Positions 1 to 14,035 of a DNA stretch of 64,000 nucleotides are shown in pieces. The stretch is taken from assembly GCA_029907205.1 (NCBI GenBank), contig JARYMI010000017.1:21-64020 (forward strand). Direction: 5' to 3'. Both the position numbers and the translations under genes were made by a program. Origin of the DNA: Clostridiales bacterium (GTDB lineage: Bacteria; Acidobacteriota; Aminicenantia; Aminicenantales; UBA8522). How positions within the stretch are numbered: position 1 is the stretch's first letter; each line of letters opens with the position of its first letter. The notes under the pieces were generated by a model that was given only the letters and a program-made list of their open reading frames with translations, did not search any database and had not been told where the DNA came from.

Positions 1-663
1 CTTGAGGTCCTCAAGATGGCCTTTGATTACATGCCCGGAAACTACGATATTTTTTCTGGCATCATTGCCTTTCTCATGGAGGATTCCCAGGACAACGCTG
101 TCATCGAGGGGCTGAAGGCGTTTCATTTCCGGGAAATGGATTACGACCCGGTGATCTGGAATTACGCGGGTCTTGCCCACTGGCACAAAGGAGATGCCGA
201 GGAAGCTCGGAAATGCTGGGAAAAGGCCATCAAAATTGACGCGAAATTTCCCACTCCTTACAACAACTTAGGGACGCTCTACCATTCCATTTTCAGAGAA
301 ACAAAAGATAGAAAAGTCTATGAACTGGCCCTCGCAAATTTCAAAAAAGCGATTGAGCTTGACCCTTACAACAGCAAATGCTACAACGGCCTGGGGTTGC
401 TTCATCTGGAAGCAGCCGCTTACCAGGAGGCCATCGCCGCCCTGGAAGAAGCATTAAGAATTGACCCGGATTTCCCCGATGCCCTTTATAATGTGGGCAT
501 CGCCCATATGAAAATCGGAGGCTATTCCACCGCCCTCAAGTTCTTTCAGGCGTTTAAGGCCAGCCACGCTTATCAGTCTCTCAGTCCTTCCGAAAAAGAA
601 GAGGTGGAAAAACTCATCCAGACATGCAGACAGAACTCAAGAGCTAAAAGGCCATCTCCATAA
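1..663 (+). CDS. Tetratricopeptide repeat protein, C-terminal part (5'-truncated by window edge)
   Basis: Frame is open from base 1 (CTT GAG GTC CTC AAG ATG...). Repeated TPR motifs: WNYAGLAH..A..CWEKAIKIDAK, YNNLGTLY, YNGLGLLH..A...LEEALRIDP, ALYNVGIAH. Confidence 0.85.
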   Translation, partial: LEVLKMAFDYMPGNYDIFSGIIAFLMEDSQDNAVIEGLKAFHFREMDYDPVIWNYAGLAHWHKGDAEEARKCWEKAIKIDAKFPTPYNNLGTLYHSIFRETKDRKVYELALANFKKAIELDPYNSKCYNGLGLLHLEAAAYQEAIAALEEALRIDPDFPDALYNVGIAHMKIGGYSTALKFFQAFKASHAYQSLSPSEKEEVEKLIQTCRQNSRAKRPSP

Positions 664-1618
664 CCTTCTGCTGCACGTCCCCTCCTGTCAGGTTCTTCAG
701 CCGGATAAAGAGCTTATTCTTGCCCTGGCGCAGTCTCTCCAGGTTGCCTTCCCAGAGGAATGGAATTTCTTGCTTGAAAGAGGCGTTCATTTTCTTCTTG
801 AGCTCGTCCTCGGCAAGGGCGACTTCGAAGGAAGACTTGAGCTCCCAGAACAGCTCGCCACCCGAGTCCTGGAGCTCCAGATGGTATTCGACCTGCGTCT
901 TGAGCATCCCGGCCTCTTCCTTGAACCAGATGGCGGAGTAAGGAATCTCTAAGAGGACTTGGCCCTCGATTTTTTCCGCTTCGACCGTCCTTCTCACCTT
1001 CCAGTTGAAGTCGAAAAAGCCTTTTTCTCTTTTAAACGTTTTTTGGGCCCGGGCCTGGGCCATGCTGAGCTCGTGCATGTACATCAGGTTGAAGTCGCGA
1101 AGAGAGGTCAAATCATAGGTGATGAGCTTATAGTCCCCCGTGCAGGTGCGATCCTGGAAAACCACCGGGAAATTGCCGTAGTACCAGACCTCCCGGCAGG
1201 AGCCGTATTCGTCCCCCATGGAATCAATAATCCTGTCCGTCGGCGGCCCGAAAAGGATGTAGATTCTTCCCCTGTCGGTTAGCCAGCCGGGCCTGCCTTC
1301 GGCCACAAAAAGCTCGGTGGCCTTTTCGATGCGGTCGAAATATTCCATCTTGAACTCGTTCTCCTCGGTGTCCGGGTCCGGGTCGCGCCGGGCCCAGAAG
1401 TCTTCGATGAACTTATCTTTCTCCGCATGAGGAAGCTCCAGGAAGATTTTCTCTTCCTGCCTAGTGATGATATATCTCACTTTGGAAAGGAAATCAGCGT
1501 ACTCGGGCGGGAGCTGCTGGGCCAGCTTATACAGGCGGCAAGAGGAAGAAAGAACAAAGAAAATTGAAAGCGCGCCGAATGAAAGCCAAAAGGTCTTAGT
1601 TAGCTTTGCATTTCTCAT
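644..1618 (-). CDS. GWxTD domain-containing putative lipoprotein
   Basis: FW.RRDPDP..NEFK.EY..R and GWLTDRGRIYILFGPP motifs; N-terminal hydrophobic stretch ending LSSSC (lipobox-like). Confidence 0.85.
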   Translation of the reverse strand: MRNAKLTKTFWLSFGALSIFFVLSSSCRLYKLAQQLPPEYADFLSKVRYIITRQEEKIFLELPHAEKDKFIEDFWARRDPDPDTEENEFKMEYFDRIEKATELFVAEGRPGWLTDRGRIYILFGPPTDRIIDSMGDEYGSCREVWYYGNFPVVFQDRTCTGDYKLITYDLTSLRDFNLMYMHELSMAQARAQKTFKREKGFFDFNWKVRRTVEAEKIEGQVLLEIPYSAIWFKEEAGMLKTQVEYHLELQDSGGELFWELKSSFEVALAEDELKKKMNASFKQEIPFLWEGNLERLRQGKNKLFIRLKNLTGGDVQQKVMEMAF

Positions 1619-1628
1619 CGGCCTTCTC

Positions 1629-2579
1629 CTAATTCTCTAACCTGAACTCGGCCACTTTTCGCCGCTCTTCCTTTCCCGTCCTGTTTTTGACAAGGACGAT
1701 AAGCCTGTTCTTTCCCTCCCGGAGTGACGCCATGTCTTTGTCCACCATGATCGGAATCTCAACCACGCATTTTTCATCCATCCTTTGCTCGAGCTCAGAA
1801 GCGGTTAAAACGAGATCCTGACTGCTCTTGTGCTCCCAGTGGATGGCGTTCCGGCTGTCCCTGAGTTCAAGCGAAAGGTCAAGTGTCGTCTGGAATGTCT
1901 CTCCTTCTGAGGAAAGCCAGATGGACCGGTAGGGAATTTCGATCACAACAACGCCCTCAAGCCTGGACTCAACGCCAGGATTTCTCTTGATGCTGAGGTC
2001 AAAATCAAAACGCGGACCTGTCTGTGCTCCGGTTTGTCGCGCAGCTTCTTGAGCCTTGTTGAGGTCATGAAGATGACTCAGGTTCAGGCTGACCAACGTG
2101 TAGTTTCCGTTGCAGTAGTAATCCAAGAAAACAACTGGAAAATCGCCGTAATACCAGACCTCCTGGCAGCGGCTGTAGGCATCTCCCGACATAGGCGTAG
2201 TGACTCGGTCGGTGGGTGGACCGAAAAGGACGTAGATCTTACCCCTGTCCGTGAGCCAGCCGGGTTTCCCCTCCCCGGGGAAAAGTTTGCCGGCAGAATC
2301 CAAGCGCTGGAAATACTCTTCTTTGAATTCATTGATTTCTGTATAGGGGTCAGGGTCGCGCCGGTCCCAGAAATCCTTGATGAACTGAGGTTTTTCGGAA
2401 TCGGGAAGCTGGAGGAACGCCCGCCTTTCTTCCTCAGTGATAATGTACCGGACTTTGGATAAGAACTCCCCGTATTCCGGCAGCAATCGCCGCTCCAATC
2501 TGTAAAGCCGACAGGCGGGCGCCAGGAGAAAGAGTGCGGCGAAAAAAGCTCCCCAGACGAGGAGCACTTTGTTTTTCAT
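1629..2579 (-). CDS. GWxTD domain-containing putative lipoprotein (paralog of 644-1618)
   Basis: GWLTDRGKIYVLFGPP motif; signal ending LAPAC; visibly co-linear with the neighbouring gene. Confidence 0.85.
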   Translation of the reverse strand: MKNKVLLVWGAFFAALFLLAPACRLYRLERRLLPEYGEFLSKVRYIITEEERRAFLQLPDSEKPQFIKDFWDRRDPDPYTEINEFKEEYFQRLDSAGKLFPGEGKPGWLTDRGKIYVLFGPPTDRVTTPMSGDAYSRCQEVWYYGDFPVVFLDYYCNGNYTLVSLNLSHLHDLNKAQEAARQTGAQTGPRFDFDLSIKRNPGVESRLEGVVVIEIPYRSIWLSSEGETFQTTLDLSLELRDSRNAIHWEHKSSQDLVLTASELEQRMDEKCVVEIPIMVDKDMASLREGKNRLIVLVKNRTGKEERRKVAEFRLEN

Positions 2580-4636
2580 TTTTTTCCCTTCAGGTTCTCG
2601 ACGTGCTGGCGAATTACAGGCTGATCGGCGTTAATCTCCAGGGACTTCTCCCAGACAGCGAGGGCTGCCTTGACGTCTCCCTTCTGGAAATAACATTCAC
2701 CAATGGCGTTGAGCAAGTTTGTGTTGGTCCCGTAGTGGGACACAACCCGGTCATAGACCTCGATGGCTTTATCCAGCTCACCCATGTGCTGGTAAGCCCT
2801 TCCCATGAGAAAGAGGAGCTCGTAGCGGGGCGTCTCTTCCTTGTCCAAGAAAGGCCCAAGAAGAGGCCCAACCTTCCCAAAATCTCTCTTAACCATATAG
2901 GCCTGAGCCAGGTTGAGGGCAAAATCCGTTGATTCGGGTTTTCGCCTCGACGCCCTCTCAAGATGGACAACGGCCTCATCGATCCGCCCAACGTTAAAAA
3001 GCTGACTGCCGACAAAGTATTCGTAAACCGGGTCGCTCGGGTCGGGAAGAATCCTGGAATGGACCCAGGGCCGGCTGACAGCCTCGAAATGGGTGACGTC
3101 GAAAGCCTCGCTCGCGGACAGAGATTCTTGCCCGTCAATGATTAGGGTTGCTTTGACAACATAATGAGCCGGGACGAAATCTGTTAGGGCAATTTCCTCC
3201 AGCAGGACGGGAAAGTCCGGGTATTCGGAAAGCTTTCTGGAAAAGCTGCGGACCGATTCTTCATCCTTGAGAAAAGTGTATCTGACCTCGGTTTTTTCCT
3301 TCAGCCCGGGTTCAAGACCAAGCACCTGGAAGATCAAGCCGAGAGTGTCCTTCTTGACGAAAACACGGTTGGGCGCAGAGTAGACCTGGCAGGGCCCGAT
3401 GCGGAAGGGCTTAAGGCTTTTCTGCCATCCATCAACTCTTGTCACCTTATAACCCAGGATGAGCGGCGTCATCTGGAATTGAGCTTCGTCCCCCGGAATG
3501 AGAAGAGTCTGCTCCAACGATGTAAATTCCTTTGAAACCTCGTTCTTGACCAGGATTGACAGGTTGTATGTCCCGGGAATGAGGGGGAACATATCGTGAA
3601 TGTTGAGCGGCTGGCGGCTGATGCTGGCCATCTTAGCTTCGTCAAGATCCAGGGAGATCGTCCGGTCGAACTGAAAGACTATCTTCCCCTCGGGTGTTGT
3701 CACGCTGCCGTTCAGTTTCAGGGTCGTGTAGTACTTCCTCTCATACTGTCCCACGGACAGTCTCTCCGGCTCGATCGAGAAATGGACGAAGGTGAGGCCG
3801 GACGGCTCTTTCACGATTTTTACAAGGGAGTCGCTGCCAATGTAGTTGGCCGTGTACTCCACCTCGACGATATCCTTGTACTGGAGGAATTTCTGGGCGT
3901 ATTTCTCTTCGATCAGGCGCTGGGGCGTCGTCTCGATCCTCTGAACGAGCAGGTCAGAGGCCAGAGAAGGGCGGCCGATCGACGCCGATGCTTCTCCGGG
4001 GATATAGGAGAGTGAAGCATCAGCCAGCTCCGGTTCAAATTCTTTGAGCTTCTCATAAGCGCTCATGTAATCAATCGGATCGCCTTCATAAGAAGTCAGC
4101 AGTTTCTGGGGCCCGTCTCTCGTCGGGCTGTAGAGCTTGTATTCTCCGACGCCCCCTTCCTGGAAAAACACCAGGTTGAATCCTGGCGGCAGGCCCTCTT
4201 CTGTCTTGCCCTGGTAAAACCAGATCTCAGCTGCATAGGTCTGGGTTTTCCCCTCCAGCCGCTGGATATCGTTCGGTTCTCCGAGAATGATGTAGATGCG
4301 GCCCTGGTCTGTCTTCCAGCCGGGTCTTGGCGATTTGCGGCCAAAAAAATGGTTGGCATAGTTGATACGCCTGTAGTGCTCTGTCCTGAATTCATTTTCG
4401 GGGGTCCCGGGGGTTGGATCTCTCTGCTTCCAGAAGCCCTCGATAAAAAGGTCTCTCTCTCTGTCTGTTGTAAGCTTTAAGAAAACTTCTCGCTCCAAGC
4501 GTCCGATGATGTAGACGACCTCCTCGTCCAGCCATTTCTTGAAGCGTTCGGGAAGCTCGGTTTTCGCAGAAAAGCTGACCGAAGGAACTAAGGTGAAGCT
4601 CGCGGCAAGCAAAAGAGACAGGATTTTTGTTTTCAC
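2576..4636 (-). CDS. GWxTD domain protein with C-terminal TPRs, signal peptide
   Basis: W.DEEVVYII...E..FW..RDPTPGT.ENEF and GWKTDQGRIYIILGEP; C-terminal TPRs; GTG start preceded by AGGAG; 4-nt overlap with the next gene. Confidence 0.88.
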   Translation of the reverse strand: MKTKILSLLLAASFTLVPSVSFSAKTELPERFKKWLDEEVVYIIGRLEREVFLKLTTDRERDLFIEGFWKQRDPTPGTPENEFRTEHYRRINYANHFFGRKSPRPGWKTDQGRIYIILGEPNDIQRLEGKTQTYAAEIWFYQGKTEEGLPPGFNLVFFQEGGVGEYKLYSPTRDGPQKLLTSYEGDPIDYMSAYEKLKEFEPELADASLSYIPGEASASIGRPSLASDLLVQRIETTPQRLIEEKYAQKFLQYKDIVEVEYTANYIGSDSLVKIVKEPSGLTFVHFSIEPERLSVGQYERKYYTTLKLNGSVTTPEGKIVFQFDRTISLDLDEAKMASISRQPLNIHDMFPLIPGTYNLSILVKNEVSKEFTSLEQTLLIPGDEAQFQMTPLILGYKVTRVDGWQKSLKPFRIGPCQVYSAPNRVFVKKDTLGLIFQVLGLEPGLKEKTEVRYTFLKDEESVRSFSRKLSEYPDFPVLLEEIALTDFVPAHYVVKATLIIDGQESLSASEAFDVTHFEAVSRPWVHSRILPDPSDPVYEYFVGSQLFNVGRIDEAVVHLERASRRKPESTDFALNLAQAYMVKRDFGKVGPLLGPFLDKEETPRYELLFLMGRAYQHMGELDKAIEVYDRVVSHYGTNTNLLNAIGECYFQKGDVKAALAVWEKSLEINADQPVIRQHVENLKGKK

Positions 4637-5659: not shown

Positions 5660-7006
5660 ATGAGCATATCCGTTATCCCTGCCGATGCCATCGAGGAGAA
5701 AATCCAGAAGCTCACCGAAAAAGATGTCAAAAGGATTTTGACCGTTTTCCGGGAAAAACTGGATGCGAACGCCGCCTGCTCCCTCTACTCCTGTGTCCAT
5801 TGCGGCCTCTGCGCCGACTCCTGCCATTACTACCTCGCTGCGGGAGAGCCAGAAGCAATGCCGGCGGCAAAGTTAGACCTGGTGAACCGGGTCTTTAAAA
5901 AATATCACTCCCTCATAGGAAGGAAGCTGCCTCAGCTCGCTGGCGCTAATCCCTTGACGAGGGAGCTCGTCCGGAATTGGGTAGATTCACTTTTCGGGCG
6001 GTGCACCTTGTGCGGCCGGTGTTCCTTGAGCTGCACGATGGGCATCAATATCTTCTCTCTTATCCGCGCCGCCAGGTCTGCCCTGGCCGCTGTCGGGCTT
6101 GTCCCTCCCGGGCTCCAATCGACCGTCGACACGGCCATCCGATCCGGCAACAACATGGGAATTTCGAAGGAGAACTGGCTGGAGACAGTGGCCTGGCTGG
6201 AAGAAGAGCTCCAGAATGAGCTCCGTGACCCGCGGCTCCGCCTGCCTGTTGACCGCAAAGGTGCGAAAATCCTCTACGCGATCAACCCAAGGGAGGCGAT
6301 GTTTTTTCCTCTCTCGATCTCAGCGGTCGGCAAGATTTTTCATGCGGCGGCCGAAGACTGGACGTTCTCGAGCGCCAACTTCGATGTCACTAACTACGGC
6401 CTTTATAACGGAGACGACGAGGCCGCCGGTATCATGTCGGGCCGGCTGCTGCGGGCCGCTGAAGAGCTCGACTGCCGCGAGCTCGTCCTGGCCGAATGCG
6501 GCCACGGGTTTAACTCCAACCGCTGGGAAGCGCCGGAATGGCTGCGCCGGAAGCAGAGCCTCAGAGTGCGGAGCATCCTTGAGGTGGTGGCCGAGCACAT
6601 CCAAAACGGCCGCATCAAGCTCGACGCTTCCCGCAACGCAAAGCTCCACACCCTCCACGACCCCTGCAACCTCGTCCGCCTCGGGGGAATCATCGAGGAG
6701 CAGCGGTATATTCTCAAGCACGCCGTCGGGGATTTCGTTGAAATGCATCCAAACCGCGAGAAAAATTACTGCTGCGGCGGAGGCGGCGGCCAGTTGGCCA
6801 TGACCAACTTTGCTCGCCGGAGGATCGAGGCCGGGAAGATCAAGACCGACCAAATCCTGGCGACCGGCGCTGAGGTCGTCGCCACTCCCTGCCACAACTG
6901 CATCGACCAGCTCATGGACCTCAAGAAACATTACAAGCTGGCGATAGAAATAAGAACTGTCTGCGAGATAGCCGCCGACGCTCTGATTATCGAGGCTAAA
7001 AGCTAA
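5660..7006 (+). CDS. (Fe-S)-binding CCG-domain oxidoreductase (HmcF/TmcB/DsrK/HdrD-like)
   Basis: Two CxxCxxCxxxC motifs (CVHCGLCADSC, CTLCGRCSLSC), plus ECGH, HDPC, CCGGGGG and PCHNC. Confidence 0.88.
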   Translation: MSISVIPADAIEEKIQKLTEKDVKRILTVFREKLDANAACSLYSCVHCGLCADSCHYYLAAGEPEAMPAAKLDLVNRVFKKYHSLIGRKLPQLAGANPLTRELVRNWVDSLFGRCTLCGRCSLSCTMGINIFSLIRAARSALAAVGLVPPGLQSTVDTAIRSGNNMGISKENWLETVAWLEEELQNELRDPRLRLPVDRKGAKILYAINPREAMFFPLSISAVGKIFHAAAEDWTFSSANFDVTNYGLYNGDDEAAGIMSGRLLRAAEELDCRELVLAECGHGFNSNRWEAPEWLRRKQSLRVRSILEVVAEHIQNGRIKLDASRNAKLHTLHDPCNLVRLGGIIEEQRYILKHAVGDFVEMHPNREKNYCCGGGGGQLAMTNFARRRIEAGKIKTDQILATGAEVVATPCHNCIDQLMDLKKHYKLAIEIRTVCEIAADALIIEAKS

Positions 7007-7398
7007 ACGCATTCGTATCCATACTCCTGGAAATGACGGTCGAAGGCAAAGGCTTTCTGGACTCCGGTCCGTCGCATGATTTCAAAACTCACGCAGTCGA
7101 CAAGGCTAAGCGTGCGCCGATTCGCAACCAGATGAGCGCTCACGGCCGCTTCATGGATATCCCGGGTCGCCCAAATAAGGCGGAGGATAGGGACAATGTC
7201 CTGTTCAAAAACGTGCCCAGCCTCTATTCCTAAGCGCCGGAGGATGAGCGCCGACGTTTCAACCACAATACAAGTATGGCAGACAAGATCGTCTTTGTCG
7301 GTGAGCATTTTCTCCCAGTGCTTTTTGGCTGCTAAGTGGCTTGTATCTCCTCGACCAAGAACGGCAAGGAAAGCGCTCGGATCGACAAAGACGTTCAT
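7003..7398 (-). CDS. PIN-domain (VapC-family) toxin, possibly decaying
   Basis: VFVDPSA, VVET, SLVDCVSF, FAFDRHF PIN acidic motifs; the usual DTS reads DPS. Confidence 0.8.
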   Translation of the reverse strand: MNVFVDPSAFLAVLGRGDTSHLAAKKHWEKMLTDKDDLVCHTCIVVETSALILRRLGIEAGHVFEQDIVPILRLIWATRDIHEAAVSAHLVANRRTLSLVDCVSFEIMRRTGVQKAFAFDRHFQEYGYECV

Positions 7399-7404
7399 GA
7401 TTCT

Positions 7405-7530
7405 TCAGTCTTGCTTGTCCTCATGTTTCTCCGGCAGTATTCCCGCATAGGCATCTTCGAGGTATCGGTCATGCTCCCGGGAAAGATCAGTGAGACCCGA
7501 CCTGAAACGCCCGGCCTCCGCGATGGCCCG
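7405..7530 (-). pseudogene. C-terminal remnant of a CopG/RHH-type antitoxin
   Basis: Minus strand reads RAIAEAGRFRSGLTDLSREHDRYLEDAYAGILPEKHEDKQD*, ending just before the PIN start. G.FRSG..DLS..HD.YL is typical of antitoxins paired with this VapC clade. No N-terminal half or start codon is present. Confidence 0.7.
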
Positions 7531-7825
7531 AGACCGCTTCGGAGATCTCGTCAAGGCTGTCGTCGATGTCACGAGAGGGATCATGGCCGTTGACGGAGAA
7601 CTCCATGCTGACGAAGAAGCCCTTCTTCTGAGCCGGGGATCTCGTCAGGCGGATCTATGGGGTGTAAATATCTATCCAGAGTTTGACGACAAAGACAGAA
7701 TCGAATTCGATTCGATCATCAACATCCGGCCCTCCCAAGGCAATCGCTCTCGCGGAGTGGACGACTCGGACCTGTGGCGCAAATGCTTCTACGCCTTTGG
7801 ATACGCGGCGCGGTCGTCTAAATAG
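7522..7825 (+). pseudogene. DUF5674-like protein, N-terminally truncated with a foreign C-terminus
   Basis: FGDLVKAVVDV, GELHADEE.LLL, DLWG.NIYP, IEFDS.INIRPSQGNRSRGV motifs. The sequence upstream of 7520 belongs to the opposite-strand antitoxin. Confidence 0.6.
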
Positions 7826-9099: not shown

Positions 9100-10533
9100 T
9101 TAATGCGGGGCTTTGTCCCCTGGCTGATGGAATTTGTTGATATGCTGACCGGAGTTTCCGGACGCATGGACTCGCTCCCGTCTCCTCGCCATGAATGCTC
9201 CCGCCGCAAAGGCCGCCAGCGCTCCCAGGATTGACGTCATGAACGGCGCTTCGAGTCCAAGGACATAGGAAAAAAGCGGGGTCAGCACAAGCCCTGCGGC
9301 CAGCGCGCTCATGGCTGCAGCGCCTCCGCCGACTCGGGTAAAGAGCCCCATGAGAGTGACCACGAGAATCCCGGCCGTCCCGAACGAGGAGGCTGTGAGG
9401 ACGAGCTCGTATATTCCCTTGGCGTGAACGGCAATCACGTAGGCAAGAACTCCCGAGGCAAGCACAACCAGCCGGGCGCTCAAGACCCGTGTCTTTTCTC
9501 TTTTGAGGCCGAACAGGGGGACAAGCAGGTTATGCGAAACCAGCGCGGAGATTGCCAGCAGGATACTATCAACCGTGGAGATGATAGCTGAAATCAGGGC
9601 GCTGGAAAAGACGACGAAGAGCAGCCGGGGCAAGTTTTGCCCTGCCAGCCTGATCAAGAACTGCTCCGGGGCAGCCACTCCCGGAAGGATGTTCGGGCCG
9701 ACCAGCCCAAGAAGAACGGGGATCGAACCCAGGCTCAGGTAGATCCCACAGGCCAGGAAACTCGCTCTTCTGGCTACAGACACGGACTTGGCTGCGAGAA
9801 CCCTGGAGATCGCCTCCTGGGTGACGAGCGAACCCAGCACAGGGACCATCCACCTGTCCATCCTCTGAAGAAGAGTCTCTGTGGGCCCGATAAACCTCAG
9901 CCGTCCAGGATCCATGCTCCCCAGCATTTCCCTCCAGCCGTGAAAACTCTGAAAACAGACGAAAAAAAGAACAATGAGACCGAGGAAGATGAAAAATCCC
10001 TGGATGATGTCCGTGTAGATGTCACCGAGCATCCCGCCCATCAAGGTGTAGACAAGGACGAAAAGCGCGGCTGCCGTGATGGCCGGAGTCACAGGCAGAG
10101 GCGTGGTCGAGGCAATGACCTGACCGAAAGCCCTGATCTGCGCCGCTCCCCAGATCAGAGAGGAAGGGATCATAATCCAGACAGCCATCTTCTCGACGCA
10201 AACGCCGAAGCGTTCCCGGTAGTAATCGGCCAGGGTGATATAGTTACCCCCCCGGAGACGGCCGGCCAGAATAAGCCCCATCAGGAAGAGGCAAAGGCTG
10301 AACCCGAAAGGGTCGGCCCGGCTGCCCGACAATCCCTGGCGATAGACAGCGGCCGAGGAGCCCATGCATGTTTCGGCGCCAAACCAAGTGGCAAAAAGCG
10401 AAAACGCGACCATGATGAGCGGCAGGTTGCGGCCGCCGAGAAAAAAATCGCTCTCCGAACGGATCCGCCTCGAGATCCAGAGGCCGATCGCCAGCTGCAC
10501 CACCATGAAGGCCAGGATGAACAGCCAGGTCAT
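9100..10533 (-). CDS. Sodium:solute symporter family protein
   Basis: DFFLGGRNLP, SLFATWFGAET, YTLMGGM...YTDIIQ, SAIISTVDS; about 13 hydrophobic segments. Confidence 0.9.
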   Translation of the reverse strand: MTWLFILAFMVVQLAIGLWISRRIRSESDFFLGGRNLPLIMVAFSLFATWFGAETCMGSSAAVYRQGLSGSRADPFGFSLCLFLMGLILAGRLRGGNYITLADYYRERFGVCVEKMAVWIMIPSSLIWGAAQIRAFGQVIASTTPLPVTPAITAAALFVLVYTLMGGMLGDIYTDIIQGFFIFLGLIVLFFVCFQSFHGWREMLGSMDPGRLRFIGPTETLLQRMDRWMVPVLGSLVTQEAISRVLAAKSVSVARRASFLACGIYLSLGSIPVLLGLVGPNILPGVAAPEQFLIRLAGQNLPRLLFVVFSSALISAIISTVDSILLAISALVSHNLLVPLFGLKREKTRVLSARLVVLASGVLAYVIAVHAKGIYELVLTASSFGTAGILVVTLMGLFTRVGGGAAAMSALAAGLVLTPLFSYVLGLEAPFMTSILGALAAFAAGAFMARRRERVHASGNSGQHINKFHQPGDKAPH

Positions 10534-10765
10534 TAAAGGTACCCTCTGACGATAATGGAGAGGAGGTTGGACTCGGTTTGAGAAGAAAACACCTCGCGCA
10601 CAGGCTCTCGCCCCACTAACCCGAGCTATTCACAATAATGCAAATAACCCAGGTCAAATAATTTTTTGGGAATTTATACATAACGAAGATTCTGTTGTCA
10701 ATAGGCCGAGAAAGCCAGCCGTCTTGTCCTCTGGCGAGCGCGGTGCTAAAATGTATAGTGCTTCC

Positions 10766-11926
10766 ATGCGGACAATTCTTTTCACCGGGAAAGGAGGAGT
10801 GGGTAAAACCACCCTTGCCGCGGCCACGGCTCTTCTCTGCGCTCGACGCGGGCATAAAACGCTGGTGATCTCGACAGACGCCGCCCACAGCCTCTCCGAT
10901 TCCTTCGAGGTCCAACTGGGCAACTCGCCCCAGCCGATCGTTCCCAATCTTTTCGGCCAGGAAGTTAACGCCTTAGAGGAGATTGAGAAAAAATGGGGAG
11001 AAATCAAAACCTATCTCACAGCCCTGTTTGCCTCTCAGGGCGTTGACACGATCGAGGCCGAGGAGCTGAGCGTCTTCCCGGGCATGGAAGAACTTTTCAG
11101 CTTGATGGAAATCCGGCGATACAGCCTGACTTCCGAGTATGAGGTCGTTGTCGTCGATTGCGCGCCGACCGGCGACACTCTCCGCCTTCTCAGCGCGCCG
11201 GAGATCACGAGCTGGTATCTCAAGCACATCTTCCCCATCCAGAGAACCGCGGCCAAGGCGGTGCGTCCGGTGGCCAACCGCATCCTGCCGTTCCCTTTTC
11301 CCGAAGACAGCGTCTTCGAGGCCATGAAAAAGCTGACCACACAGCTCGCCGAAATGAAGGGCATCCTCGAGGATCACCGCCGGACTTCCATCCGCCTCGT
11401 CATCAACCCCGAGAAAATGGTCATCAAGGAAGCCCAGCGGGCTTTTACATTTTTCAGCCTGTTCGGCTACAGCGTGGACTTGATCATTGTCAACCGCATC
11501 ATCCCTGGTGCTGTGCAGGATCCCCACTTTAAAACCTGGAAGACCATCCAGGAGGCATACCTTCGCCAGGTCGAGGAGAACTTCGCGCCTCTCCCGATCT
11601 TTTCGGCCGAGCTCTACAGCCGGGAGATCGTCGGGCTCGACCTCCTGGCCGAGCTGGGCCGGAGTATCTACAGCGACGCCGATCCCGCCGGCCTCTTCTT
11701 CGCTCACAACCCGATCCAGATTAAGAAAGCCGACGGCAAGCTCATTCTCTCTGTCCATCTTCCCTTCGTCGAGAAGAGCGACCTTGACCTCCTGCAAAAG
11801 GGGGAGGAACTCTTTATCAAAGTGGGGAGTCTCAAAAGGAACATCCTTCTTCCCCGGATCATGCTCAACCACGCTATTGAGGGAGCCAAGCTTGAGAAGG
11901 GCAGGCTGAAAATAACATTCGTGTAG
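10766..11926 (+). CDS. ArsA/Get3(TRC40)-family ATPase with C-terminal HSP20/alpha-crystallin-like domain
   Basis: GKGGVGKTT, STDAAHSLSD, DCAPTG.TLRLL, NPEKMVIKEA; C-terminal LHLPFV..DLDL...EL.I.VG..KRNI.LP...AKL..GRL.ITF. Start chosen at MRTILFTGKGG. Confidence 0.88.
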   Translation: MRTILFTGKGGVGKTTLAAATALLCARRGHKTLVISTDAAHSLSDSFEVQLGNSPQPIVPNLFGQEVNALEEIEKKWGEIKTYLTALFASQGVDTIEAEELSVFPGMEELFSLMEIRRYSLTSEYEVVVVDCAPTGDTLRLLSAPEITSWYLKHIFPIQRTAAKAVRPVANRILPFPFPEDSVFEAMKKLTTQLAEMKGILEDHRRTSIRLVINPEKMVIKEAQRAFTFFSLFGYSVDLIIVNRIIPGAVQDPHFKTWKTIQEAYLRQVEENFAPLPIFSAELYSREIVGLDLLAELGRSIYSDADPAGLFFAHNPIQIKKADGKLILSVHLPFVEKSDLDLLQKGEELFIKVGSLKRNILLPRIMLNHAIEGAKLEKGRLKITFV

Positions 11927-11956
11927 CCATAAATTTCTCCGAAAGGAGGTGAGAGC

Positions 11957-12166
11957 ATGGCCGCCGAGAAAATGCGCGAAATCAGGATATCGATTCCCGA
12001 GGAACTCTTCTCTTTCATCATTCCTTCCCGCACGAATGAGCATCTCCTCCGAGCCAGGAAAGAAATCCTTTTGGCTCTTCGCTCCCTGATCGATGCCCGG
12101 ATCGAATCCCTGGAAAAGCGGGCTGAGCCGAAGCCGGAGACAAAGAAAAAAATCAAGGTCGAGTAG
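11957..12166 (+). CDS. Small helical hypothetical protein with C-terminal IxV motif
   Basis: Strong SD AAGGAGGTGA; amphipathic helix EHLLRARKEILLALRSLID; ends KKKIKVE. Confidence 0.75.
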   Translation: MAAEKMREIRISIPEELFSFIIPSRTNEHLLRARKEILLALRSLIDARIESLEKRAEPKPETKKKIKVE

Positions 12167-12170
12167 AAAG

Positions 12171-12199
12171 TTGACTTGATAGCCTATTCGTATTAGATT
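12171..12199 (+). promoter_or_regulatory. Sigma-70 promoter for the CDP-alcohol phosphatidyltransferase/ino1 pair
   Basis: TTGACT-17-TAGATT. Confidence 0.5.
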
Positions 12200-12222
12200 A
12201 GTTTATCTTTGTCATAAGACCC

Positions 12223-12891
12223 ATGGTCCAAACCTGCCCTTCTGAGGCTTCCAGCGGAAAAATCAGGTTGCTTAATGCCGTGCCGCAGAAGCTGATTCGG
12301 GGTATCCACGCAAGCCTCGACAGACTTGCTGATTTCCTGACGGGATTCCACACGAGTCCTAATATCATCACGGTCCTCGGGCTTCTGGCCGGGTTGGCCA
12401 GCGGACTCCTTTTTGCCATCGACCGTCCGCTCGGCGCGGCCGGACTCATCATCATCTGCGGCCTCCTCGATATCCTGGACGGCAAGGTCGCAACAAGAGG
12501 CAAAAGGCAAAGCCTTTATGGGGCCATTTTCGACTCGACGCTCGACAGATACTCGGAGTTTTTCATCTATCTCGGCCTGGCCGTCCATTTCCGCAACCGC
12601 TGGCCCCTCTGGGTTGTTTTTCTCACCTTCCTGGGTTCGACGATGGTAAGTTATACCCGCGCAAGGGCTGAGGGCTTGGGCATCGAATGCCGAGAGGGAC
12701 TGATGCAGCGGGCGGAACGACTGATTCTTCTTGTGCTCGGCTCTCTCATCGGGTCGCTTTTGAAAGCATTCGACCCTGTGATGACCGCCGTATTGATTTT
12801 CATCGCCCTCGTCTCTAACATAACGGCTTTCCAGAGGACGTTTCTTGTCAAAAAAGTCGAAAAAAACCTTAAAACCCACAAGGAGGTCTAA
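12223..12891 (+). CDS. CDP-alcohol phosphatidyltransferase, phosphatidylinositol-phosphate synthase type
   Basis: [13 protein letters not shown]...[17 protein letters not shown]...GLMQRAER; directly upstream of ino1. True start may lie further downstream. Confidence 0.8.
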
Positions 12892-12895
12892 AGGC

Positions 12896-14035
12896 ATGGA
12901 CAAAATCAGGGTTGCCATCATCGGCGTCGGAAATTGCGCCTCGTCACTTGTCCAGGGTATTGAATACTATAAGAAAGCCAAAGAAGGCGATTTTATTCCC
13001 GGCGTTATGCATGTGAACCTAGGCGGCTACCACATCCGTGATATCGAATTCTCCGCAGCCTTTGACATCGACAAGAACAAGGTTGGAAAGGACTTAAGCG
13101 AAGCCATCTTCACATGGCCGAACAACACGACAAAATTTTCCGAGGTCCCCCGTCTTAACGTTCCCGTCCACAGGGGCATGACCCATGACGGGCTCGGCAA
13201 GTACCTCTCCCAGATCATCCAGAAGGCACCGGGCGCAACAGCCGACATCGTCTCCATCCTCAGGGAGACAAAAACGGATGTCGTCATCAGCTATCTCCCG
13301 GTAGGAAGCGAGGAGGCCACGAAATGGTACGTCGAGCAGGTGCTCGACGCCGGCTGCGCTTTCATCAACTGCATTCCCGTTTTCATTGCCAGCGAAAAAT
13401 ACTGGCAGAGGAGGTTCGAGAAAAAGGGGCTGCCCGTCATCGGCGACGATATCAAGTCGCAGGTTGGGGCGACCATCCTCCATCGCACCCTGGTCAACCT
13501 TTATCTCGACCGTGGCATGCCGATTGAAAAGACCTACCAATTGAACACGGGGGGCAACACGGACTTCCTGAACATGCTGGAAAGGGAGAGGCTCCATTCC
13601 AAAAAAATTTCCAAGACCAACGCTGTCGTCTCCCAGATCAAGGCTCGCGGCCTGACGATCGCCCCCGAAAACGTCCATGTCGGCCCGAGCGACTATGTCC
13701 CCTGGCAAAAGGATAACAAACTCTGCTTCCTTCGCATCGAGAGCCGGCATTTTGGCGACGTTCCCACTACCTTGGAATGCAGGCTTTCTGTAGAAGATTC
13801 ACCCAATTCAGCCGGAGTCGTTATCGACGCTATCCGCTGCGCCAAGCTGGCCCTGAATAACGGCCTTTCAGGGGCTCTTTTCGGACCGTCATCCTACTTC
13901 ATGAAAACTCCCCCGAGGCAATACACCGACACCGAGGCCAGGGAACTCACCGAAAAATTCATCGCTTCGTACGGCAAAAAAGCCGCCGGTCCGAAGCCGA
14001 GAAAAAAAGCGCCAAAAAGAAAGAGCCGGAAATAA
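12896..14035 (+). CDS. ino1: myo-inositol-1(3)-phosphate synthase
   Basis: [65 protein letters not shown]. Confidence 0.95.

Follow-up and report, generated by a model that had tools for sequence, protein, structure and literature searches.

Where does an alpha-crystallin domain (aCD) that has no docking tail of its own find one? The question is raised by two adjacent genes in a 64-kb stretch of DNA (contig JARYMI010000017.1, hereafter the window) from a non-photosynthetic Aminicenantes-type bacterium: the first encodes a 386-amino-acid (aa) ATPase of the Get3/ArsA/TRC40 family that ends in an aCD, and the second a 69-aa protein that ends in I-K-V-E. Among the small heat-shock proteins (sHSPs), the groove between strands beta4 and beta8 of the aCD binds IXI/V motifs of the same protein family, in cis or in trans, as well as those of BAG3; both hydrophobic residues are required, and peptide affinities are micromolar (PMC6212398, from the available part of its text; PMC10248533, PMC6593721 and PMC9237749 are cited below on the same footing). 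A sequence-only reading of the window had proposed that the small protein supplies the missing tail in trans and lays its helix in the client groove of the ATPase. The coordinates and features that it gave for the two open reading frames (ORFs) are all borne out by the sequence. The pair is a real, widespread and undescribed two-gene module, in which the small protein can be taken with good confidence as a dedicated physical partner of the ATPase; contact through the tail, argued by analogy with sHSPs, is plausible.

Conservation of the gene pair

A single genome scan returned 570 relatives of the ATPase, of which the best 80 loci, spanning at least 12 phylum-level groups, were analysed. A partner gene lies next to the ATPase gene, on the same strand, at 68 of these 80 loci (66 downstream, 2 upstream). 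Class A partners, defined by a match to an iterated hidden Markov model (HMM) of the window's partner (E < 1e-3), are found at 40 loci, directly downstream in 38 and directly upstream in two (L069 and L075). Class B consists of ORFs of 42-77 aa that occupy the same place outside the reach of the HMM; its 28 loci belong to Bacillota, including eleven Bacillus loci (mostly cereus-group species), plus two Chitinispirillaceae. Non-homologous chance ORFs at L063 and L070 were left out of the partner count, while L075 and L079 were included.

The two genes are closely coupled. Overlap with the ATPase stop codon is seen in 35 of the 66 downstream partners and amounts to exactly 8 nucleotides (nt) in 22 of them; a further 11 begin within 30 nt of it, 11 at 31-100 nt and nine further away, and the spacer in the window is 30 nt. 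The Shine-Dalgarno motif seen in the window also precedes the partner gene at most loci, and in overlapping pairs it is encoded by the C-terminal ...F-G-G codons of the ATPase. No neighbour is conserved across phyla besides the ATPase-partner pair itself. When two partners were used for a reverse tblastn search of a plasmid collection, in which relatives of the ATPase occur in Bacillus, Nonomuraea and Fusobacterium only, they were found beside the ATPase at three of three places and nowhere else.

The association also follows the phylogeny of the ATPase. On a quick maximum-likelihood tree of 81 ATPases, built without Get3d sequences, the 28 class-B partners are all contained in a single clade of 30 rows (100% support in the Shimodaira-Hasegawa-like approximate likelihood ratio test), and the labels A, B and none require seven changes, compared with 33.3 when the labels are shuffled (0 of 200 shuffles as low). 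These data indicate that the two genes are co-inherited and very probably translated together.

Two further observations concern individual loci of the survey. At L066 (Bacillus pseudomycoides) an in-frame stop interrupts the ATPase frame after about 350 nt, and the partner ORF is intact. Six loci titled 'uncultured Eubacteriales' (L004, L006, L008-L010 and L012) lie within the Aminicenantes clade and carry an Aminicenantes-type partner; the titles are probably mislabels.

The small partner and its terminal motif

The small ORF is a real gene under purifying selection. Against 10 Aminicenantes orthologues its uncorrected ratio of nonsynonymous to synonymous differences (pN/pS) is 0.17-0.38, and 62 homologues of 62-83 aa were recovered at E<=7e-15. 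A profile of the partner family, run against 1.84 billion representatives, matched 1364 clusters (50% identity) at E<=1e-3, of which 224 reached E<=1e-10; lengths of 53-116 aa are seen in almost all of the top 150 of these 1364 representatives. Its assignment to Pfam PF27253, listed as AF_1253 in the ESM Atlas and uncharacterised, is indirect: all 62 homologues have a precomputed PF27253 domain, and the partner's Atlas cluster (score 0.92) is 100% PF27253. Six partners searched against NCBIfam received no name, with one sub-threshold SCO1431 match only, and no PDB sequence matched better than E 0.2, the best values being 0.2 and 0.34. That the small ORF is a chance ORF or an annotation artefact, which its small size alone might suggest, has virtually no probability and is refuted by the purifying selection, the 62 homologues and the 1364 clusters; the strong Shine-Dalgarno sequence and a RefSeq-annotated counterpart in Bacillus also speak against it.

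The protein has four parts, whose positions are listed in Table 1: an N-terminal segment, a helix, a charged linker and the tail. The N-terminus is the variable part. Among the 40 class-A partners it takes the form EIRIxIP, as in the window, in 12, an FEVEH-type hairpin in 11, a CxxC element in six and other forms in 11, and in class B an extra helix ending in L-P is found instead. The loci in which CxxC or CxxCP replaces the window-type strand are L013, L014, L021, L028, L043 and L062, together with the DUF5304 protein of Nonomuraea described below.

Within the helix, H29, A33, E36, L38 and A40 (window numbering) are at least 90% conserved. Because H29, A33, E36 and A40, spaced by +4, +3 and +4, share one polar or small helical face, a specific protein contact is suggested, rather than a greasy client helix. 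The protein appears to be soluble: the highest hydropathy over 19 residues is 0.46 (median of 68 partners 0.55, maximum 1.42), and by this measure none of the 68 has a transmembrane-like stretch. Five representatives (P0073, P0087, P0118, P0136 and P0146) carry tandem duplications of the helix with a single tail at the very end. Helix duplications or repeats were also noted more widely, in P0064, P0073, P0082, P0087, P0118, P0136 and P0146, and one 625-aa protein consists of 11 near-identical repeats of the helix region.

The C-terminus of the window's partner, KRAEPKPETKKKIKVE, terminates in ...KKKIKVE. The sequence-only reading had suggested a survey of downstream neighbours for a conserved terminal I-x-[IVL], and across the 80 loci such an end is present in 66 of the 68 partner genes. 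In its loose form, [IV]-x-[IVLW]-x, the motif ends these 66 partners, and in its strict form, [IV]-x-[IV]-[EDNQK], 61 of 68; the corresponding background among stop-to-stop ORFs of 40-140 aa from the same loci is 359/6390 (5.6%) and 73/6390 (1.1%). The two exceptions are L075, which ends in ...KEVK, and L079, in which IPV stands four residues before the end. Among the homologues of the window's own partner, 61 of 62 end in [IV]-x-[IV]-[ED]. For the best 150 of the 1364 representatives, the motif lies at the very end in 123, where 7.9 are expected when the last 40 residues are shuffled, and within the last 15 residues in 141.

The composition of the tail is narrow. In 65 pairs, position -4 is Ile in 50 and Val in 15, position -2 is Ile in 35, Val in 26, Leu in three and Trp in one, and position -1 is Glu in 45 and Asp in nine; a basic residue, Lys or Arg, stands at position -5 of 98 among the 123 representatives with a terminal motif. 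The motif persists even where an HMM can no longer align the remainder of the small protein. Across partner classes, the tail alone is invariant. This is the key property of the locus, in that the sole invariant part of the subunit is a docking motif of the sHSP type.

Partner families in other lineages

Although class-A and class-B sequences are barely alike, their profiles align from end to end with the terminal motifs superposed (hhalign probability 87.7%, E 3.4e-6). DUF3926 (PF13080) matches 11 of 27 class-B members, with a best E of 4.5e-21. In a RefSeq record of Bacillus thuringiensis (L081), a MarR family regulator (1867-2349) is followed by an ArsA family ATPase and a DUF3926 protein, the last two overlapping by 8 nt. 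This arrangement is common, as a MarR-family gene lies directly 5' of the ATPase gene on the same strand in 26 class-B-type loci (L015, L018, L022 and 23 others), forming a three-gene unit.

A third type of partner is seen in Nonomuraea (Actinomycetota), in which a 145-aa DUF5304 (PF17230) protein (L082, 3168-3605; 32.4 bits against a cut-off of 26.8) is encoded 48 nt downstream of one with ArsA_ATPase and ArsA_HSP20 domains. Besides a matching helix, the DUF5304 protein contains a CxxCPxC element and a long, charged linker, and its last residues are ...HIDLN. Similarity to class A is weak and confined to the helix (hhalign 35.8%), and DUF5304 matches five of 41 class-A members with a best E of 0.019 only.

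Taken together, the module is found in methanogen-related archaea and, among bacteria, in Aminicenantes, Chloroflexota, Bacillota (with the Bacillus cereus group), Spirochaetota, Thermodesulfobacteriota and Actinomycetota, and its partners belong to three Pfam families of unknown function: AF_1253 in the window, DUF3926 in Bacillota and DUF5304 in one actinomycete. The pairing provides a first functional context for all three.

The ATPase and its crystallin domain

The ATPase ORF runs from the ATG at 10766 (MRTILFTGKGGVGKT...) to a TAG at 11924-11926 and ends in ...GRLKITFV. An alternative start at the ATG at 10751 is possible; homologues start at the same MR(I/T)ILFTGKGG. The Pfam domain ArsA_ATPase (PF02374) covers residues 1-302 (E 9.6e-93, 311.2 bits against a cut-off of 24.3), and the NCBIfam model of the TRC40/GET3/ArsA subfamily (TIGR00345) scores 264.2 bits (cut-off 135). 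The P-loop residues G8, K9, G10, G11, G13, K14 and T15 are invariant across 41 ATPases, as are the columns of switch I (D-x-A-H-S) and switch II (D-x-A-P-T-G), which were located by alignment to 3zq6. That structure, an archaeal Get3 without a crystallin domain, is the closest solved relative by sequence (E 9.5e-54), and its alignment is contiguous over residues 4-307. The 386 residues contain no CxxC zinc motif of the cytosolic Get3 type, which is the norm for aCD-bearing homologues (PMC6593721, Table 1; PMC10248533; available parts). As predicted from these features, the protein is most likely a catalytically intact Get3-like dimer with a hydrophobic-client domain.

Two more specific assignments were rejected. 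The arsenite-pump ArsA model (TIGR04291) scores 102.8 bits against a cut-off of 650, and the protein is a single domain of 386 aa, not two tandem domains (about 580 aa); nor does any of the 50 window ORFs scanned with Pfam (six at E<=0.1, 44 at E<=1e-5) represent the arsB, arsR, arsC or arsD context of such a pump, in keeping with the earlier remark that ars genes are not adjacent. The NosAFP equivalog (NF050088), which describes the cyanobacterial and plant Get3d clade, scores 171.8 bits against a cut-off of 325. The loci nearest to the window's ATPase come from Aminicenantes, Chloroflexota, Bacillota and methanogen-type archaea; Candidatus Aminicenantes genomes are the nearest relatives (L001, 91% identical).

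The C-terminal domain had been described as alpha-crystallin-like, which holds at the level of sequence. In addition to the Pfam match (Table 1), a profile of the last 86 residues of 38 relatives matches Nostoc Get3d (3igf, E 3.7e-12) and Arabidopsis AtGet3d (8elf, E 4.2e-6), followed by true sHSPs, first Hsp16.5 (E 0.002-0.004), and then Hsp17.1, Hsp21 and 4rzk, within E 0.002-0.05. Because the profile matches Get3d structures and then genuine sHSPs, the domain is by sequence alpha-crystallin-like and of the Get3d type; the fold in relatives of the ATPase has been solved (PMC10248533, available part). Hsp16.5 aligns in two pieces, with some 21 residues skipped where the beta6 loop lies.

The absence of a tail from this domain is general. 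The window's ATPase ends one residue past the last aCD strand, and in 80 related ATPases 0-35 residues follow it, typically about six. No [IV]-x-[IV] was found after the last strand in any of the 80, as checked by pattern (the end of L007 was read by eye). With 0/80 tails in cis, the sHSP docking motif is absent from the ATPase and present at the end of its neighbour's product.

Possible modes of contact

These features can be combined in a model in which the first gene would supply a Get3-like ATPase dimer whose aCD has neither an I-x-I tail nor the beta6 dimerisation loop, and the second a small soluble subunit in which a variable N-terminus and a conserved helix are joined by a flexible charged linker to a terminal [KR]-[IV]-x-[IV]-[ED]. 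Most likely lodged in the groove between beta4 and beta8, the tail would anchor the small protein on the ATPase's aCD, and the tethered helix would regulate the nucleotide cycle, the closed state or the oligomeric state of the ATPase, and not serve as a client. That the tail contacts the ATPase through this groove, as the analogy with sHSPs proposes, is given an even chance. The wider picture of a coupled bicistronic module, tail anchored on the aCD and tethered helix acting on the ATPase, could likewise go either way. The aCD of Get3d occupies the dimer-interface site that Get4 uses on yeast Get3, and has been suggested to keep the closed state stable or to control hydrolysis (PMC10248533, available part). 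As the Get3d aCD sits at the dimer interface, occupancy and release of the groove by the tail could link the nucleotide or client cycle to binding of the partner.

Several results weigh against this model. The aCD is just as conserved in lineages without a partner: 12 of the 80 loci, mostly Anaerolineae, have no partner (eight of them in one supported group of nine rows that also holds the partner-bearing L032), and in Fusobacterium vincentii (L083, 1923-4276), where two aCD ATPase genes stand in tandem with overlapping stop and start codons, no small partner was found within 800 nt downstream. The aCD must thus have a role without this neighbour in such lineages, or the partner lies elsewhere in the genome; the Fusobacterium tandem may be a heterodimeric variant. 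No natural fusion of ATPase and partner, expected at about 450 aa, occurs among the best 150 of the 1364 representatives, a weak negative; the single match of the fusion search was P0063, a chimera-like 235-aa protein on a contig of 1251 nt. Mutual information between tail positions and aCD columns yielded phylogenetic signal only. Eight ATPases carry Ile, Met or Val in place of Leu in the beta4 column of L342 (11789-11791), and seven of their partners have Val, not Ile, at tail position -4, a post-hoc pairing with four independent contrasts that is not significant; independent-contrast tests of three beta4 columns against this tail position, with four to nine pairs, were none of them significant. 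Lastly, in the available parts of the literature the solved Get3d aCD packs on the ATPase dimer without oligomerisation features (PMC10248533), and isolated IXI peptides bind weakly, at about 10 uM or more (PMC6212398).

The alternative that best survives accepts the small protein as a dedicated subunit and places its tail outside the beta4/beta8 groove, as a strand on another sheet edge or as a C-terminus read by some other pocket, with the helix as the main interface. This is possible, if rather improbable. It would account for the position of the motif at the very end of 123 of the 150 representatives, which is stricter than groove binding requires, and for the retention of one tail by tandem helix duplications, and it agrees with the helix having a conserved face of its own; it leaves aside that the I/V-x-I/V spacing after a basic residue fits an sHSP-type motif and that the sole other conserved feature nearby is a tail-less aCD.

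In the variant put forward by the sequence-only reading, the tail binds the aCD and the Get3 dimer receives the helix in its client groove, where the helix would be a plug, an inhibitor or a dedicated client. The ATPase does keep the Get3-type helical subdomain, as the contiguous alignment to 3zq6 indicates, and the helix is amphipathic. Clients of Get3 are transmembrane-like, however, and the hydropathy of the partners given above is well below such values; the conserved positions are His, Ala, Glu and Ala, with no bulky hydrophobic residues, and class-B helices are not conserved in sequence. Placement of the helix in the hydrophobic groove is thus unlikely, and a role for it as a client is not supported, given the polar or small character of the H29/A33/E36/A40 face.

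More doubtful still is a co-transcribed and physically independent product, perhaps a small regulator or DNA-binding protein, or one that pairs with ordinary sHSPs, with a tail meant for that target. The Aminicenantes N-terminus, a strand followed by P-E-E-L, superficially resembles the start of a ribbon-helix-helix protein, and two homologues are labelled ZapA by the Joint Genome Institute; but this N-terminus is lineage-specific (12 of 40 class-A partners), and the 41 class-A members show no match to ribbon-helix-helix, ZapA or any other Pfam family at E<=10 beyond that to DUF5304. In addition, a separate MarR regulator is already present at the 26 class-B loci mentioned above, and stop/start overlap with one ATPase over at least 12 phyla is typical of subunits.

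Returning to the model of an aCD-anchored subunit, it may tentatively be extended to all three partner families, AF_1253, DUF3926 and DUF5304, as one ancient family of cofactors for prokaryotic aCD-bearing Get3-like ATPases. Such a pair would amount to a "split small heat-shock protein", its crystallin domain being part of the ATPase and its tail part of the subunit, and groove occupancy would gate the ATPase/holdase cycle. The subunit might also be bivalent, since an I-x-I-x-I strand stands at the N-terminus of the window's partner and the helix is duplicated in other lineages; both aCDs of a dimer could then be clamped by it, or separate dimers bridged. If true, this would be the first concrete function for the aCD of Get3d-type proteins.

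Relation to known systems

The nearest described proteins are Get3d of Arabidopsis (At1g26090; 8elf) and Nostoc (All4481; 3igf and 8egk). Like the window's ATPase, they have one Get3 domain and a C-terminal aCD without a beta6 loop, and no CxxC. Unlike them, the window's NTPase domain is nearer to archaeal Get3 (3zq6) than to 3igf, which aligns over residues 4-216 only (E 8.6e-25), and its P-loop, switch I and switch II are retained, whereas AtGet3d and NosGet3d have degenerate versions of them (PMC10248533, available part). Get3d is also a photosynthesis-associated clade, whereas the window's organism is non-photosynthetic.

The window's ATPase instead belongs to the class reported as 'previously unnoticed bacterial Get3 homologs', together with the archaeal 'Group 11' (Bodensohn et al., 2019; PMC6593721). 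According to the available part of that paper, members of the class have a TRC40 insert, an aCD and an intact nucleotide site, are found in non-photosynthetic bacteria and some archaea, and have an elusive function. The available parts of PMC10248533 and PMC6593721 do not mention a neighbouring small gene, and no partner of Get3d is described in that of PMC10248533. The role and partners of the aCD are stated there to be unknown, and new partners to be needed (PMC10248533; the role and function also in PMC6593721). A translationally coupled small subunit makes this question directly testable.

With sHSPs, the window's pair shares a basic residue followed by I-x-I/V at or near a C-terminus, after a flexible linker, and the pairing of this motif with an aCD (PMC6212398, available part). 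It differs, as known from sequence, in that aCD and tail reside on two polypeptides and that this aCD, joined to an ATPase, has no dimerisation loop. The IPV motifs of BAG3, which bind HSPB8 and HSPB1, also offer I-x-V in trans to an aCD groove, as proposed here (PMC6212398; PMC9237749; available parts). BAG3 is, in contrast, a multi-domain eukaryotic scaffold without homology to the partner, and the analogy concerns the mechanism only.

Short helical elements are known to tune dimeric deviant-Walker-A ATPases of the SIMIBI (signal recognition particle, MinD and BioD) class; these include Get4, the cytosolic helices of Get1/Get2, MinE and the N-terminal peptides of ParB. The partner resembles such regulators as a short helical element, a likeness by description.

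In the literature searched, which left most subscription journals outside, no paper was found on PF27253, DUF3926 (PF13080) or DUF5304 (PF17230). The term AF_1253 returned unrelated catalogue numbers only, ArsA_HSP20 the Get3d paper and an unrelated nematode paper only, and no newer work on bacterial aCD-bearing Get3 was found. The earlier description of the locus as an undescribed system therefore holds in part: the ATPase class is in print and the small proteins are in Pfam, and the link between ATPase and partner and the tail motif appear in no paper found. In our view, the pairing with its tail motif is an undescribed variation on two familiar themes, Get3 with a cofactor and a crystallin domain with an I-x-I tail.

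The locus and its neighbourhood

Table 1. Positions of the features of the ATPase-partner locus within the window.
Feature	Position	Strand	Basis or remark
Promoter-like site TTGTCC-17-TAAAAT with TG	10724..10752	+	Just 5' of ATPase start; weak
Get3/ArsA/TRC40-family ATPase, 386 aa, single domain plus C-terminal aCD	10766..11926	+	Pfam, NCBIfam
Deviant Walker A (P-loop) GKGGVGKT, residues 8-15	10787..10810	+	Sequence
aCD (Pfam ArsA_HSP20, PF17886), residues 323-385	11732..11920	+	E 2.3e-20; without beta6 loop or own I-x-I tail
Shine-Dalgarno GGAGGTG, 5 nt 5' of partner ATG	11945..11951	+	Sequence
Gene of the soluble 69-aa partner, Pfam AF_1253 family (PF27253)	11957..12166	+	Homologues, selection, hydropathy
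N-terminal strand-like EIRISIP, residues 8-14, own I-x-I-x-I pattern	11978..11998	+	Lineage-specific
Conserved amphipathic helix, residues 28-55, EHLLRARKEILLALRSLIDARIESLEKR	12038..12121	+	Hydrophobic moment 1.16
Charged Pro/Lys-rich linker, residues 56-65	12122..12151	+	Sequence alignment
Terminal I-K-V-E, residues 66-69, conserved [IV]-x-[IV]-[ED] end	12152..12163	+	Survey

The ATPase and the small ORF share a reading frame, with a TAG, one codon, a TAA and eight codons between them (11924-11959). The promoter-like site ahead of the ATPase is weak, as the region holds two such sites compared with a mean of 1.0 in shuffled sequence. A search of 10300-12600 with Rfam gave no match, and the PADLOC defence models gave weak P-loop matches only.

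The 64-kb window is otherwise ordinary chromosome, with gyrA/gyrB, dnaG, rpoD, lpxC and the dcw (division and cell wall) cluster from mraZ to ftsZ. The neighbours of the pair are a sodium:solute symporter, MsrB-MsrA, a CDP-alcohol phosphatidyltransferase and an inositol-3-phosphate synthase. The last two follow the pair on its 3' side (12223-14035), and the CDP-alcohol phosphatidyltransferase resembles archaetidylinositol-phosphate synthase (NF040950, 153.8 bits, under the cut-off of 180). Because the same gene pair trails the module in 10 Aminicenantes loci, inositol phospholipid synthesis is suggested for this lineage.

Two other regions of the window may be noted. Three successive GWxTD-domain proteins are encoded on the minus strand at 647-4636, the largest of them fused to tetratricopeptide repeats. 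A 131-aa ORF, without a Pfam match at E<=1e-5, and a 59-aa ORF upstream of it have the appearance of a small two-gene cassette on the minus strand (7006-7584), and a DUF5674 protein is encoded opposite to them on the plus strand (7490-7825).

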